Made by a program: the position numbers and the translations under genes. Source: Octopus sinensis (taxonomy: Eukaryota). From it: DNA of 38,924 nucleotides. Below, piece after piece: positions 13,551 to 38,112 of this stretch (the first letter of the stretch is position 1; the number at the start of each line of letters is the position of its first letter). The DNA lies in NCBI RefSeq assembly GCF_006345805.1, contig NW_021833467.1:1-38924 (forward strand). The letters are read 5' to 3'. The notes below the pieces were generated by a model. The model was not told where the DNA came from. It ran no database searches and saw only the letters and a list, made by a program, of their open reading frames with translations.

Positions 13551-14000
13551 TCTCTTATTATAAAAGGCAGATTTTATCTGCCTCCCTTTGGGAGTTATAC
13601 AAATCTACAATATAGGATTTCTTCAATTACAATTTACCTAGCAGTTTTGAGAGTACAATGCATCGCGTCATGCCAGGTTCAGTTTTTAAAATTTAAACTC
13701 CAATTAAGCAAAATTTACAGAAAACTCACATTCTGGTGTGTGTGTCAAATGCTTTTCTTAGTCTGGTTTACACCACACGCAAACGCACACACACAGTGGG
13801 CAACGAATAAAATGAAACTAATTCACTTACTGTAGTGAGTGATTCTTTCACTCTGCCTCCCACTTCTTCTTTCCACACATACACACGCAAATATATAAAT
13901 AAAATTGTAAGCTAACGTGAGTGTGTGTGTGTGCGTGTGTGTGTGTGTGTGTGACGGTGCGTGTGTGTGTGTGCGTGTGCGTGAGTGTGTGACAGGAAAG
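13551..14000 (+). mobile_element. Non-autonomous Helitron 5' portion
   Basis: A|TCTCTTATTATAAAAGG start typical of Helitrons. No 3' end found. Confidence 0.45.
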
Positions 14001-14129
14001 TTTTTTTAGACGAATATAACACCTATATCCAAGTAGCAGAAAGATAAGACAGTAAGGTGTGATTTGGGGGAAATTTTGCTGCTATTTCTACCAGGTCTAG
14101 CTACCATGTAGAGGTCCCCCTCAATTCTT

Positions 14130-14345
14130 TTATTCTTCTGCTTTTTCCAGCCATTGCTCTGTGGCCATGCTGGGGCAATGCCTTGAAGAATTGTAGTTTA
14201 ATGAATCAACTCCAGTTTTATTTTTGTAAGCATTGTACTTATTCTATCTGTTTCCTTTGTCAAACCACTAGGTGACAGGGATGTAAACAAACCAACATTC
14301 GTTGTCAAGCAGTGGTGGAGGAAAATCACAAGCACAGACACGCAC
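14130..14345 (-). mobile_element. Decayed SINE 3' half
   Basis: 'tggccatgctggggca..gccttgaag...gtacttattctatc...gtaaacaaaccaacattcgttgtcaagc' overlaps the family seen at position 1. Confidence 0.6.
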
Positions 14346-14443
14346 ACACACACACACACATACATACATACATACATACATACATACATACATACATACA
14401 TACATACAATACATACATACATATATATGTGTGTATATATATA

Positions 14444-14700
14444 TTGCAGCGTAGAAGGTGTTTGTAAGCCATTTAAGAAACACAAAAACCGTTAAATTCA
14501 CTTCAACATTTAAATTTAATTTGCCAAAATATTTTCGTCGCTTTGAGACCGCGACCTGTTCACTGACAAAAATATCGTGCTAACAGGTCGCGGTCTCAAA
14601 GCGACGAAAATATTTTGACAAATTTAATTTAAATGTTGAAGTGAATCTAACGGTTTTTGTGTGTTTCTTAAATGGCTTATAAACACCTTCAACGCTGCAA
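14444..14700. repeat. Fold-back element: ~117-bp inverted arms with a 21-nt spacer
   Basis: 14444-14560 is a near-perfect reverse complement of 14582-14700. Confidence 0.95.
14520..14570 (-). ncRNA. Minimal hammerhead with swapped G3-C8 core
   Basis: tttgtca-GTGAACA-g-gtcgc-ggtctcaaa-gcgac-GAAA-atat-TT-tggcaaa. Confidence 0.6.
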
Positions 14701-14862
14701 CTGTTTTCGTTCCAGCACACGATCTCAGATCAAGTCACTTGCTATGCATGTACATCTCTGTAACTATATATATATTTATATATATATATATATGTATATT
14801 GGTAAAAACAGTAAGATAACAAAAGAAAGAAAGAGACCTCAATATTATGTAAATAGAGGAAA

Positions 14863-15257
14863 TCTTTATATATAAAAGTGAGGTTGTGTGTCTGTCTCCT
14901 ACGATTTAGATTCCTAACTACTCCCACATTTTGCGGTGCAGTTTAACCAAAACCGGGTATCTTATAGTCGTGATTCATATCGAGACCGTCTGGGTATTAG
15001 CGCGCGTCTACGATGAGTCTACGATTTAAAAAAAAAATTTACCATCAATTTTTCCCATTTTTAATCCATTTTTGACATATATAAGGGAAGTAACTCTCTA
15101 AAATTTATTATTAAATCTCAGAACGTAAAAAGCTACAGTAACACCCCTCCCCCTTTGAGGTTAGCCATATTGAGATGGCTATTATACTTACATCTCTAAA
15201 AATGCTTATATAATTATTTCCCTTACAAACCCGAGCAACGCCGGGCGATACTGCTAG
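14863..15257 (+). mobile_element. Complete 395-bp non-autonomous Helitron
   Basis: A|TCTTTATATATAAAAG ... hairpin cccgagcaacgccggg ... CTAG|T. Confidence 0.85.
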
Positions 15258-16749: not shown

Positions 16750-17015
16750 GAATCAAATAAACGTCCAAGGCTGTGAAAGATTTCAGAACATTTATAGAGA
16801 GGTCTTCCAGCTGTTCCAGGGATATTTTATATATCCTTTCATCGAAGACGGTGTGAGAAAATGGTTAAGCAATAGTTATTCTAGAATAACTATTGCTTAA
16901 CCATCTTCTCGCACCGTCTCCGATGAAGAGATACATAAATATCCCGGAAACAGCTGTAACGTCTTCTCTTTAGAAATGTTCTTAAATCTTTCTTAGCCTT
17001 GCATCTTTATTTCCT
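16750..17015. repeat. Spacerless palindrome of a PLE-type terminal repeat with HHR-like motifs in both arms (copy ~26907-27170)
   Basis: Perfect 44-bp palindrome at 16861-16904 with diverged outer arms. The right arm reads gtct-CCGATGA-agagata-cataaa-tatcccg-GAAA-cagctg-TA. Confidence 0.8.
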
Positions 17016-17627: not shown

Positions 17628-18180
17628 TTATGCGTGGATATTAAGGCGTTTTCTTGTATTTTCAATGAAAAAAGTTTCTTTATTTAAACGCTCTAGTTGA
17701 GAGATTGCGTCTTTGCACTGGTAAAAAGGGAAGAGTGTGAAATTTGGTTTGATGTTACCTGCACATGTTTCTATATGTTCACTGAAAGAAATTTGTCTGT
17801 ATTCCGGGAAACGGATTTGCCCTTTATTTAGAGTGGTTCTCTTTCTCAAGGTCATACTCGATGGTCCAATATAGTGGTGTCATCAACCCGAGCAGGTTAT
17901 TACATGAATTTGGTTTTCAGATGCACAAGTGAAACTAGTTTTAATTTGAACCTCTGTCCTTGTTTGAAAAGTAAGTCCGAGCCTTCAAGCAGGTTGGGGC
18001 AGGTTCCACAGTTTGGGCGTCCATATTTTTCAACCATTGGTTTTTTGGTTGCTTTGTAAAGCTTCGCGTTTGTTAGTAGTCTGGATCCCATCAGACACAT
18101 CGATAAAGTTGTGTTGTGACTAAAGATTTTGAGTGTCATCTGACATGTAGTTATGCTGCCATCTAGTTGGGGAACGAATA
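17628..18180 (-). pseudogene. Penelope-like GIY-YIG endonuclease domain, 5'-truncated
   Basis: GRPNCGTCPNL...YIGPSSMTLRKRTTLNKGQIR...SEHIETCA...RLNKETFFI. Homologous to the C-terminus of the 9250-11280 element. Confidence 0.85.
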
Positions 18181-18378
18181 AAATACAAATAAGACTGCAG
18201 AGATGCAAAAGATTCAAATATGAACGAGGAAGTCTTGCGTTCCTCTTTAGATAAAGTGACCTAATGAGCTTTCGCTTTCATAACTGCTTAGAGGGAAAAG
18301 AAAGTAGTAGAAGAGAAAGAAGAAAGAAAATAGGGAGAAGAGGAAAACGAATACTCAGTCAAAAATAAATGTAATTAT

Positions 18379-27794: not shown

Positions 27795-28347
27795 TTATGC
27801 CTGGATATTAAGGCGTTTTCTTGTATTTTCAATGAAAAAAGTTTCTTTATTTAAACGCTCTAGTTGAGAGATTGCGTCTTTGCACTGGTAAAAAGGGAAG
27901 AGTGTGAAATTTGGTTTGATGTTACCTGCACATGTTTCTATATGTTCACTGAAAGAAATTTGTCTGTATTCCGGGAAACGGATTTGCCCTTTATTTAGAG
28001 TGGTTCTCTTTCTCAAGGTCATACTCGTTTGTCCAATATAGTGGTGTCCTCAACCCGAGCAGGTTATTACATGAATTTGGTTTTCAGATGCACAAGTGAA
28101 ACTAGTTTTAATTTGAACCTCTGTCCTTGTTTGAAAAGTAAGTCCGAGCCTTCAAGCAGGTTGGGGCAGGTTCCACAGTTTGGGCGTCCATATTTTTCAA
28201 CCATTGGTTTTTTGGTTGCTTTGTAAAGCTTCGCGTTTGTTAGTAGTCTGGATCCCATCAGACACATCGATAAAGTTGTGTTGTGACTAAAGATTTTGAG
28301 TGTCATCTGACATGTAGTTATGCTGCCATCTAGTTGGGGAACGAATA
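27795..28347 (-). pseudogene. Penelope-like GIY-YIG domain, duplicate copy
   Basis: Same as 17628-18180. Confidence 0.85.
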
Positions 28348-30109
28348 AAATACAAATAAGACTGCAGAGATGCAAAAGATTCAAATATGAACGAGGAAGT
28401 CTTGCGTTCCTCTTTAGATAAAGTGACCTAATGAGCTTTCGCTTTCAAAACTGCTTAGAGGGAAAAGAAAGTAGTAGAAGAGAAAGAAGAAAGAAAATAG
28501 GGAGAAGAGGAAAACGAATACTCAGTCAAAAATAAATGTAATTATTGGAGATCTTATTCCTTGTCTCTCTGCAGTGGAGATCTTATTCCTTGTCTCTCTG
28601 CAGTGGAGATCTTATTCCTTGTCAGCCGTGCAAACCTCTGTTCCTCACTTTGAGATGTTCTGTTTTTTTCGTAGTGCACAGTCTGTCCGTTTCTTGGTAT
28701 GCTTCCCTTTCTGCAGCTGTCTCTCTTTCTCTAGACAGAGACATTCTTTTGGCTTTATCTTGACATTGTAGACAGATTTGACACCTTCCTTCTAGGCATG
28801 GTTATACAGAAATACACGAGCGCAGAAGATAGTAAACAATGAAAATAACTGGGTAACGAAAATTATATTTCTTAATACGACAAGCAGAACATTAACAAGA
28901 TAGTTTTACGGACAATAAAGAATTGTACGTGTTGAAGCGAAATTTGTTACTAACTGAACCAAAGTGCCAGTATCGAAGGAACCAGAAATAAGCCATTAAC
29001 AACACATAAGCAAAAAACCGGCGCAAAAGTAAATAAGAAATTTTTAGGGAAATTAACTATGTGCGCGGGTTTAAGTGAAATGTTTGAAGTTACTCCTGTC
29101 AGTAAATTATGAACTTACATTTATCAGTAATTCCTTCAACAACAACAAAAAGAAAACACAAAACGTTGCAAAAGTAAATAAGAAATTTACCGAAGTGTAC
29201 GGATTGAAGTGGAATTTATGAAGTTACAGCCCCCGGGAACATCTGCAGAGAAATAGAAAGATTCCAGCATCTCACCTCAACCTTTTCTTACCAACTGTCT
29301 TTAATGCCTGCATCAGCGATCCCTTTCTGCTCGTTGGTAAGGGTTGCAATGCGTGGGTGGTTCTTGTCATCTTTCTGCTCAACCCGTTACATTCCAATTG
29401 GTACAAGCAAGCTAATATTAATGCAGCTAGTGCCATTTTCAATAAACACAGAATTTATGGAGTGTAGAGTCTGCATTCAGCCCTCGGTGAGCATAATCTT
29501 CCATCATAGAATTCTTGTCAGTATTCCACAGGCGAAGAACATTGGAAGGATTTGAATAGGTGCAGAGGACAGCAAACGTAATACGCAACTGAAATGGCAT
29601 CCGATACGCAGCAGCTTCAAGTATAGTATGCTCCAAACTCTCATCATTTTGGAGAAGACCAACTCATATGTACGCATCTTTAAATGTTGCATAGATTTCA
29701 CCTCCTACACTGCTCACTTCTCAAAGCGCTTAGCACCTGGAACATCCAAAATACCAATTTTGAATAAATTTTTTTTACGTCCTTAAGGTTTTCAGGGTGC
29801 AGTTATTTCATTGAAAGGGGTAAAATTGTAGCGCCTTATATAAACCGTTCTTTTGAAACGTATTTCACACTTTCGTAATTGTACATTTTCACTCCTGGCA
29901 CCTCCAATCTCTTGTTGTTCAATTAAGTGCATGTTCCCATATAACTCAGCCTAAGGATTTACTTGTTGCACATGACATCCATTCTTTGAGAAGAGCTTTG
30001 GGAGTTCTGACTTGCTTCCACTCTGCGATGCATTAATAATATACAACTGACTGTACTGCAGGTGACCATTGACAGTTCGTAGTGTTGTGCGAAGTTTGGC
30101 CCTGAATAC

Positions 30110-33100
30110 GTTCTATATCCTGGTATTGGATATATAATTTAACGAAGCTGTTTACACGACGCAATACGATTACTATTACATGAGACTCGACGCTCTCTGC
30201 CAACGGATCATAGGGAAATGCTTACCAATCAATTGTTCACAATCAATTGCTTACGACTAGACAGTTCTCCATGTAATGGAAATGTGTCAGACCACTTTTA
30301 GTCACTTGTAATGTTGTCAGAATCTTTCCACAGCATATCCCCTTTATAGAATTAGTCTCCCCTAAATTCTCCACTTGAGAATTAAAGTCACTCAGAGTTT
30401 TAATATCTCTTATGCTTAGGGCTCAATTCTTGTTTCCGTTCTTTTCGTTTTCAGGTGCTAGAACGTGTAATTGCAAATTGTTTCTGTGCTGGTACCTCAA
30501 ACGTGTCGTGCAATACTTTCATGAGAAATTCACTTCTTTTGTCTGATTTTTCCTTGAATCAGGTTTTAAGTTGGTTAATAAGTCTTTTATGTTCGATAAT
30601 TGTTTTTACCTTTTACCAGGAATATCATTCTTGCAATTTATATAACAATTGTACCATCCTCCCAGCCTTGTTTAATATATGTATAGTTCTTTAATAAAGT
30701 TTGTCAGCTAACTTGAAGAATTTTGAAATATTATTCCTTTTTTTTTTATTTTCACTCGGTATCGGCTGATCAAAGATGGATCTGATTATTCTAACAAACA
30801 TCAAATATCTTTGTAACCAGAGATGTTTGCTTTCTACATTTATGCACTTCAGACCGTGTTGAAAAACATTCCCCAACAACGAAGTGACATGAAACCTTAA
30901 GTGGTTTTGGCCACGGGTGCCATTTTGTGACGGGTGTATTATGAGCTATCACTATATCTTCAATGTTACAGTCCGTTGTTGGCCAGTATACCTAACTTCT
31001 CATTAACGATTTCATTATTGAAATCCCTTTGACTCAATATGAAATTCCTTTAGTAATTGCTTTTGTAGTGTGGCTGGCACTACGACTCTTTGTGCATACA
31101 TCAGCACATTGTCACACCTTGTGATAGGCTCGAATATCTTTTATCTCTTTTACCCTTTTGCATTTCTTTCATTTTTTAATGAATATATCGTTTCCCAATT
31201 GTAATTTTATATCTTGTAAGGTAAATAGCAGTTCACGCATGGAGTTATACCGTTTGCTTTTAATTTCATTTTCTATTCGCAAAGTAGCAATCACGGTATC
31301 TTCAAATGGTTCAGCATTTTCTGAAATCGGTCTTGATAAACAATTACCGTGTCCTAATTATTTAGATGGTATATACTCTATCTTAAATTCATAGTTTAAT
31401 GATACAGTACCCCAGCGTTGCAGCCTATTAGCAGTACGGCTAGATCTTTATTTCTTTTACTCTTGTACTGATAATAACGGACGATGATCTGTCTGTATTC
31501 AAAAACTTCTGCCGTGTAAAAATCTATGCAATTTTTTACGGCAAAAATAATTACAAGAGCCTCTTTTTTGATTTGGCTGTAATATTTTCTGCTGATATCA
31601 AGAACCACCGCCTTCATGTTACCATCTTTTTATTTATGTAGCATTACTGCGCCGATACAGTATTCAGAGGCATCTGAAGTTACAACATTCTCCGCTACAG
31701 AATCGAAGCGTGCTAACAACAAATCAGATGTTAATATTTTAAAATTTCGTCGAATTCCCTTTGACAATTTTCAGAGCAATTTCAATTTACCTTTTTTAAA
31801 TACATAATCTACAGTAACACTTACCCTATGCATATTTAGAATATGATTTTGGTCATAATTTGCTTGTCTCCAAAGCAATCATGTAAGGTCGTCATATTTG
31901 TCGGAGGGGGCATGTATTTAATTGCGTCTGCCTTCAACGGATCTGGTCCTCGTCCATTTCTTTCAATTTTATTTTCGGTAATAAAAAAATTCACGCTTTC
32001 TTTTTCAATATAATCCCTAATTTTTTCGAACATATATATTACTTGCTCTACATGGTGATCCCGTGATTCGCATTTAATGAGTATATCATCCAGATATGGA
32101 AATGCAAATTTACTATCGCTAACACTGCATCCATAAGCTGTTGAAAAATCGGTGTGACATTAAAGACATATAATAACCTGTTGTATATATATATATATAT
32201 ATGCGTTAAGTTTTAGGTATTTATAGCATTCATCGTCTACGCTAATATGTAGGTACGCGTCGGAGACATCCAATTAAGAAAATACCTTGTGGAAAGTTTT
32301 AAGACACTCATTTAAACCAGTGGAAAAAATCAGCATACACTCTGATTTTGTTTATTTGTTTCTAACGCTGCAAAAGCTTATCTGTTCCAACGATGCAAAA
32401 GTTACAGTTTGTTTATATTTAAATACCGGTTTGGCATTTACTTTTACTTGGAACTTCGTTTTCGTTGTGATGCTGAGATCTAATTTATCAGAAAGAACTT
32501 CAAGAAAAATCTTTTAAAATTATTTCTACAAATCGTCTGACGATTCATTTGTATTGGCAAGAAAATCATTCACATTTTTACTGAAAAGATTTATGGGGAG
32601 TTCCCATAAGTTAAACAATTCTATTCAGTGTTCCGAATAAATTTGTGATATCTTTGGTTTTTAAGGTTTTCCTACGAAATGGGACGTGATTTATCATTAC
32701 ACCATTAAAATGTAATTATTTTCCTGAAACACCACCTACAATTTTCGAAATGTCTTTTAATCTAGGAATTCTGTTTTTTTCTATGTATCTGTGTTAATTA
32801 TCGAGATATAACTGCCTTTATCTAGTTGCAACTTTACGTCCACAAATTTCCTTTGAGGCTGTTCGTTTTTTGGTCACCGATAACCTGTTTTCGTGTTTTC
32901 TTTCTGTTGAAATGTTTTCCAGGTTTTTTCTACAGTGTGATTGTTTATGATCTCTCTTGCCACATTTGACTCCTTTTATATTTTTAAACGGGCAATTACT
33001 TTTAAAATGTTGACCACCGCACCCATAAGATTAATTCGATCTTGACATTTTTTCTCTTATTTCTTATCCGTGACGCTGGAGACACTGGAATATGAGAGCA

Positions 33101-37633: not shown

Positions 37634-38112
37634 TATTCTTGTATTTAGGAATGGTCATTTTGTCAGTTTAGCCAATAAAAACTCACGCACTATATATTTG
37701 GTGTTACTTTGATTCAGCTTTATTTATTTTTGACATTAATCTTAATCTTCTTTCGAACGTATATAAACAGGAGATACAAATATTACAGGCACTCCCTCCC
37801 ACATACACACACACTTTAACTAAATATAGACACATATAGAGGTATACACAGGCGCAAGTAAAGACACATACAATAGAAATACAAAATACAAAATGGCTGA
37901 CCGTTAGTAAGAAGAGACACACAAATATAAATGAAGAAAGCAATGAACCACTGACGAAGTCACAGGAGCGTGACGAAAGATCTCTGGCCGAAATAAGAGT
38001 AAGATTGATGTGAAAAATAAATAACGCTGAAGCAAAGTAACACCAAATATATAGTGCGTGTGTTTTTTATTGGCTAAACTGGCAATATGACCATTCCGAA
38101 ATACAACAAATA
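37634..38112. repeat. Fold-back element: ~120-bp imperfect inverted arms with a ~230-bp spacer
   Basis: 37634-37757 vs reverse complement of 37988-38112, e.g. gcactatatatttggtgttactttg / caaagtaacaccaaatatatagtgc. Confidence 0.9.
37948..37987 (+). ncRNA. Minimal type-I hammerhead ribozyme
   Basis: cca-CTGACGA-a-gtcac-aggagc-gtgac-GAAA-gatc-TC-tgg, with palindromic AGATCT in stem III. Confidence 0.8.

Follow-up and report, generated by a model that had tools for sequence, protein, structure and literature searches.

Minimal hammerhead ribozymes have been described in Penelope-like elements (PLEs), where an extra nucleotide that separates position 9 from 10.1 is a conserved trait (PMC4209133). 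Core positions 3 and 8 are canonically C3-G8, and a natural covariation to U3-A8 has been reported in Schistosoma (PMC4209133). The swapped pair, G3-C8, is found in the cited literature as an engineered variant (PMC11167929, PMC8495972, PMC3884650), as an earlier sequence-only reading of the present locus had noted. Cleavage comes back in part in the C3G/G8C double mutant, and this holds also for a PLE hammerhead dependent on its protein (PMC11167929, PMC8495972); PLE cleavage is not needed for insertion in vitro (PMC11167929). Searches of literature and supplement texts, with figures and some relevant texts outside their reach, did not reveal a natural G3-C8 hammerhead, so that a prior report is possible; the accessible parts of PMC6765202, PMC7229834 and PMC13282606 contained nothing bearing on this pair. 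The locus discussed here lies at 14520-14570 of a 38,924-nucleotide stretch of Octopus sinensis DNA (assembly GCF_006345805.1, contig NW_021833467.1, positions 1 to 38,924 of the forward strand), which in its full length is referred to as the window. Its motif represents a natural, family-wide G3-C8 core, a variant of the PLE minimal hammerhead that is well supported as a core and whose catalysis is predicted from sequence.

The minus strand from 14570 to 14520 forms a minimal type I hammerhead fold, in which G3 is 14563 and C8 is 14558. Its parts are the following.

14520-14570, minus strand: minimal type I hammerhead with G3-C8 and an extra G at 14556 (sequence and RNAfold)
14570-14564, minus strand: 5' strand of stem I, TTTGTCA
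14563-14557, minus strand: core, GTGAACA
14556, minus strand: extra G between A9 and G10.1
14555-14551 and 14541-14537, minus strand: stem II, GTCGC and GCGAC
14536-14533, minus strand: GAAA
14533-14528, minus strand: palindrome AATATT
14527, minus strand: U17
14526-14520, minus strand: 3' strand of stem I, TGGCAAA, giving 7 bp with one G-U
between 14527 and 14526, minus strand: predicted cut

The sequence-only reading had proposed this fold, with a 7-bp stem I, the core GUGAACA, a 5-bp stem II, GAAA, AAUAUU and a UU site, and both the coordinates and RNAfold, which recovers stems I and II (z -2.4), agree with it; the extra G at 14556 is a feature absent from that reading. Together with the two stems, the motif contains U4, G5, A6, A9, G12, A13, A14, A15.1, U16.1 and H17, and positions 3 and 8 form a Watson-Crick pair, as G3-C8. 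It also presents the traits of PLE minimal hammerheads, namely the extra nucleotide between 9 and 10.1 (G14556), the pair G10.1-C11.1 (G14555-C14537) and the palindromic 15.1-16.1 segment (AATATT). A genome pattern that allowed any letter at positions 3, 7 and 8 gave 1054 family matches, and among the first 100 listed 86 have G3-C8 and none has the canonical C3-G8, so the motif is classed as a hammerhead variant. A hammerhead descriptor that accepted any pairing 3-8 combination, with stem cut-offs chosen after the motif was seen, gave one match in the window and none in 200 dinucleotide shuffles. An Rfam scan at E<=1 returned no hammerhead match, only repeat-driven miRNA and snoRNA noise, and it likewise missed a canonical-core minimal hammerhead at 37951.

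The family to which the motif belongs, family A, was delimited from 60 further loci, 11 of which have the window's junction and the rest other flanks. These loci define a unit of ~207 nt, of which L088 is a natural copy. Many copies start, on the 5' side, ~17 nt ahead of stem I, and the 3' side stops at either of two places, close to position 150 or to position 207. The unit often has an inverted, 5'-truncated partner and lies in AT-rich targets, with target duplications of at least 8 nt in 8 of the 34 family A copies examined. Such partners, a one-sided tail, AT-rich targets and variable duplication are those of endonuclease-bearing (EN+) PLEs, for which inverted partners and one-sided tails are documented (PMC8557442), and the tail has been tied to two internal start sites of reverse transcription (PMC11167929). 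Non-LTR retrozymes are head-to-tail tandem arrays of hammerhead-bearing units (bioRxiv 10.64898/2026.07.22.740005); no such arrays were found, the copies being mainly solo, in inverted pairs or linked to an open reading frame (ORF). In tail-anchored copies, taken from 40 loci picked regardless of their core, G3 is present in 32 of 36 and C8 in 34 of 37. The conservation check proposed in the sequence-only reading thus has a positive outcome, with the G3-C8 of the GTGAACA core kept across independent family copies.

The unit is the pseudo-LTR (pseudo-long terminal repeat, pLTR) of a PLE, which is where PLE minimal type I hammerheads are located. A protein N-terminus is encoded in its 3' half; the reading goes on in L121/L122 and shows homology with the ORF start of a sister PLE, while in L293 and L305 a GIY-YIG C-terminus lies ~1 kb upstream of the pLTR on the same strand. 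The pLTR is found ~1 kb behind an ORF with reverse transcriptase (RT) and GIY-YIG motifs, and within it the fold comes shortly before the start codon of that ORF. A protein search with the endonuclease region gave 150 scored matches, and in all seven parent loci fetched the frame is open over 715-1042 aa and includes DKS, YVDD, a CxxxCxxC linker that is short, and YIGET; by these motifs, the parent has the single ORF with RT and, at its C-terminus, a GIY-YIG endonuclease that marks EN+ PLEs. The parent is a young retrotransposon. G3-C8 is present in all 25 ORF-linked pLTRs in view (from 23 of 30 protein-anchored loci), a set that includes some near-duplicate loci and three in which stem II is damaged. 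The parent ORF matches a Neptune-type ORF (BLASTP E 1e-7), and its endonuclease region is 43-57% identical to that of family D, the sister PLE, whose relative L108 exceeds the PF01541 cut-off. The first 30 GIY-YIG loci contained no A-type pLTR. L317 was rejected as a parent, being an A-type pLTR joined to a truncated Neptune-type ORF with a different 3' repeat. At L317:4100-7310 this chimera has an A-type pLTR pair in frame with the 5'-truncated ORF, and at its end stands a different repeat bearing a hammerhead-like motif with U3·G8.

Related families extend the comparison. In family B, an older homologue that is ~20% diverged, copies found by their downstream part (query copy included) have G3 in 9 of 11 and C8 in 11 of 11, with N7 mostly C instead of A. 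Between the majority sequences of A and B (17 A copies, filtered at no more than 4 mismatches in the core-stem motif, and 15 B copies), 33 of 33 stem and core positions are identical, against 131 of 164 elsewhere (Fisher p=0.0018), and the outer part of stem I shows a compensatory T-A to G-C change. Family C, with the same inner stems as A, has U3 in 13 of 18 and G8 in 14 of 18 (U3·G8); it is an old family, found at loci L162-L179 and L261-L290. In family D, the pLTR of the sister PLE, C3 is present in 96 of 100 and G8 in 100 of 100, and this element has a C3-G8 hammerhead at the homologous place. A Neptune-type PLE has a U3-A8 minimal hammerhead in its 3' repeat (L098:2361, L107, L111-L113, L118, L120). 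In four sequencing runs labelled as four other organisms, no other letter reaches 5% at 14563 or 14558 in any of the four. The proposal of a natural G3-C8 hammerhead is thereby upheld, as the pair prevails in independent insertions, in ORF-linked parents and in the sister family that is older, and as a change at position 3 goes with one at position 8 from one related family to another. Family D is also represented in the window itself: the canonical motif mentioned above, a second PLE minimal hammerhead with a C3-G8-A9 core (37945-37992, plus strand, within an inverted repeat at 37677-38067), is a family D pLTR in an inverted insertion with a tail to ~38160.

On the reading that seems probable, the motif belongs to a PLE family with a swapped G3-C8, as the minimal hammerhead in its terminal repeat; it would likely cleave itself slowly in the parent RNA, this particular copy being probably inert. 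Transcription would start ~17 nt before stem I, and reverse transcription would begin at two internal sites, at pLTR positions ~150 and 207, as in the Anolis PLE. Copying of the upstream pLTR of a capped, uncleaved RNA would then yield short solo and inverted insertions in AT-rich targets. Cutting would need either a partner copy, through pairing of the AAUAUU palindromes, or a PLE protein, and would remove the cap or the priming sites.

The ends of the copies bear on this template. An extra G precedes the start in 24 of 32 full-length solo copies, and the same place in ORF-linked or extended copies has C in 33, T in 4 and G in 1. An extra G originating from a copied cap has been described for LINE-1 (PMC4038843), and that of the solo copies is likely cap-derived. 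The flank just upstream of the pLTR start (L291-L306, L356) has branch point-, pyrimidine tract- and AG-like sequences behind a (CATA)n tract, as a 3' splice site would, and a PLE 5' intron at that flank is possible. The fixed 5' start might then stem from a spliced exon 1, but the solo copies share only the one extra G and nothing further upstream, and a capped start is preferred. Counted genome-wide, 5' ends of copies are not enriched at the predicted cut (15, compared with 13 and 27 at control sites, without normalisation for how many copies match each fixed part), and a hint of a pile-up in 40 loci (~3 ends near the site) failed at this scale. The lack of a pile-up and the cap-like G together suggest that capped, uncleaved RNA is probably the template for the copies, which would agree with the PLE of PMC11167929.

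Several observations weigh against this reading. The absence of end enrichment is one of them, and stem-I microhomology inversions account for 9 of the 15 ends counted there. The loose-end consensus of the sequencing runs is without the extra G. Pfam and PDB scans of the parent ORF (for Pfam, that of L356) gave no matches, and for this reason its identity rests on the motifs, the Neptune-type BLASTP match and tblastn to sister PLEs. The counts of 3-8 pairs among 23 distinct rows (from 24 hand-chosen rows; G-C 12, C-G 6, U-G 5) are weak as covariation, because the G-C state probably goes back to one evolutionary event and the rows were chosen by hand; G3-C8 likely represents one change of state, not many. 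Lastly, family D has C9 instead of A9 in 94 of 100, and the cores of C (U3·G8) and D (C9) would be expected to be weak, which also fits relaxed catalysis.

A bolder proposal, to be held only tentatively, is that the natural G3-C8 hammerhead is active in a PLE family that moved recently, and that selection has favoured slow, still-paired cores (G3-C8, U3·G8, U3-A8, A9C) among this genome's PLEs, on the ground that a capped, uncleaved transcript is the template for retrotransposition. If so, the ribozyme would act on the element as a tuned brake or as a timer, not as a maturation step.

It is rather doubtful, on the other hand, that the motif descends from a hammerhead but has lost the ability to cut, its fold being retained as a structure to which the PLE protein binds or as a piece of an internal promoter, with G3-C8 having drifted in with a successful master. 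The missing pile-up, the capped full-length copies and the deviant cores of families C and D would all suit such a descendant, as would the Anolis PLE, in which ribozyme mutants were without effect on in vitro insertion and no RNA-seq reads end at the cut (PMC11167929). However, A and B agree in the core positions and in the 3-8 pairing but differ in the free N7 and in loop II, and 3 and 8 remain pairable across the sampled families (G-C, C-G, U-A, U·G).

The probable inertness of the copy at 14520-14570, within the slow-cleaving PLE hammerhead favoured here, is related to its surroundings, which are composed as follows.

13551-15257, plus strand: non-autonomous Helitron-like repeat of ~1.7 kb carrying the fold-back, with 5'-TC, 3'-CTAG, a subterminal hairpin at 15230-15245 and a target between A and T
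14443-14581, minus strand: left arm, pLTR copy, corresponding to positions 8-145 of L088, a natural solo copy of 207 nt (blastn 94%)
14582-14763, plus strand: right arm, inverted pLTR copy, positions 28-207 of L088, cut within the core, with a ~57-nt tail (blastn 94.5%)
14672-14761, plus strand: first 30 codons of the PLE ORF, inside the pLTR, with the reading continuing in natural copies L121/L122

Both arms are 5'-truncated copies of the PLE pLTR, as judged by alignment. The left arm is without the inferred start site and the tail and terminates in a (TA)n tract. The right arm begins within the core (A6-A9 kept, G3-U4-G5 gone) and carries TGACAAA, just as had been claimed, and the ORF start that it contains has homology with the sister PLE's N-terminus in L321. 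The sequence-only interpretation consequently stands in its natural G3-C8 hammerhead and falls in its 'fold-back element', which is no separate element but an inverted PLE insertion made up of two truncated pLTRs. One such insertion would have landed in a (TA)n tract of the Helitron-like repeat and then been amplified as DNA, giving the copy at 14520-14570.

Helitrons are characterised by 5'-TC, 3'-CTAG, a subterminal hairpin, insertion between A and T and captured foreign sequence. The carrier has all of these in common with non-autonomous Helitrons and is called Helitron-like from its ends and target. Its 5' end motif was found in 28 of 30 loci (at most 2 mismatches), and a T comes after the 3' CTAG in 29 of 30. 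Within the carrier (14862-15257) lies a second 5' end of Helitron-like form, and the same part occurs alone in L007, L013 and L025, which suggests a nested build.

An 81-nt query gave 593 candidates in the genome, and the 40 of them that were scored show 100% identity across these 81 nt; ~1.7 kb around the motif is common to all 30 loci fetched. As these 30 best DNA matches share the carrier, their identity says nothing about selection on RNA and was rejected as conservation evidence; exact copies of the locus, carried by one repeat, are not independent. It is very improbable that the ribozyme acts at this locus by processing RNA transcribed from the Helitron-like repeat or from a host gene. 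Its intact core and stems and the at least 40 identical places would fit such a role, but the copy begins at pLTR position 8, beyond the inferred start site, the identity reflects recent spread of the carrier, and read-through RNA folds into a ~125-bp hairpin (-196.6 kcal/mol) in which the whole motif is paired. Carriage in the repeat and sequestration in this modelled hairpin make the copy probably inert. A chance look-alike within a palindromic DNA element, in whose favour the missing Rfam match might count, is scarcely credible against the empty shuffles, the position in a PLE pLTR where hammerheads usually lie, the C3-G8 hammerhead at the homologous place in the sister PLE, and the ORF-linked parents, which contradict it.

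Elsewhere in the window, ~16300-36700 comprises a tandem duplication of ~10.2 kb with 100% identical 300-nt blocks, either a recent duplication or an assembly artefact. Neptune-type PLE linker/endonuclease fragments are found at 17900-18277 and 28067-28444 (minus strand). A long hairpin repeat at 16763-17005, with a sub-threshold MIR821 match, is probably a small palindromic transposon, and a broken reverse-transcriptase fragment with YLDD at 31836-32159 (minus strand) is presumably LTR-retrotransposon-like.

If the natural G3-C8 core is confirmed, G-C would join the naturally observed 3-8 pairs, and would do so in a multi-copy family with long ORFs, not in a single odd sequence. Searches that require CUGAnGA or UUGAnAA would overlook such families. 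A single genome offers related pLTRs with four different 3-8 pairs together with genomic signs of copying from capped, uncleaved RNA, a combination that makes the question of what PLE hammerheads are for directly testable.

Among the closest known systems are the metazoan PLE minimal type I hammerheads (Cervera & de la Pena 2014, PMC4209133), which share the pLTR location, the extra nucleotide between 9 and 10.1, G10.1-C11.1, the palindrome in place of helix III, and the occurrence mostly as solo copies with opposite-strand pairs. Unlike these, the present motif has a longer stem I (7 bp) and a G3-C8 pair, which is unreported in the accessible part of that paper. The natural U3-A8 variants (Perreault et al. 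2011, PMC3088659) likewise represent a natural compensatory 3-8 change, with U-A and not G-C, and no G3-C8 is named in the text available. At the protein level, the parent shares with the Nematis-clade EN+ PLEs (Craig et al. 2021, PMC8557442) a C-terminal GIY-YIG with CCHH-type cysteines, a tail, inverted 5'-truncated partners and a short CxxxCxxC linker near the GIY motif; from its spacing, judged by eye, this linker resembles two Nematis rows in the supplement of that paper more than it does Neptune-type ORFs, and the assignment to Nematis is tentative. The Poseidon element PAc of Anolis (PMC11167929) has in common a pLTR hammerhead located beside the ORF start, a pair of internal RT start sites that lead to a tail, and unprocessed RNA as template, as proposed here; G3-C8, which gives partial rescue as an engineered pair in PAc, is natural in the octopus element, whose own features are a tail of ~57 nt and an ORF start ~55 nt after the cut site.
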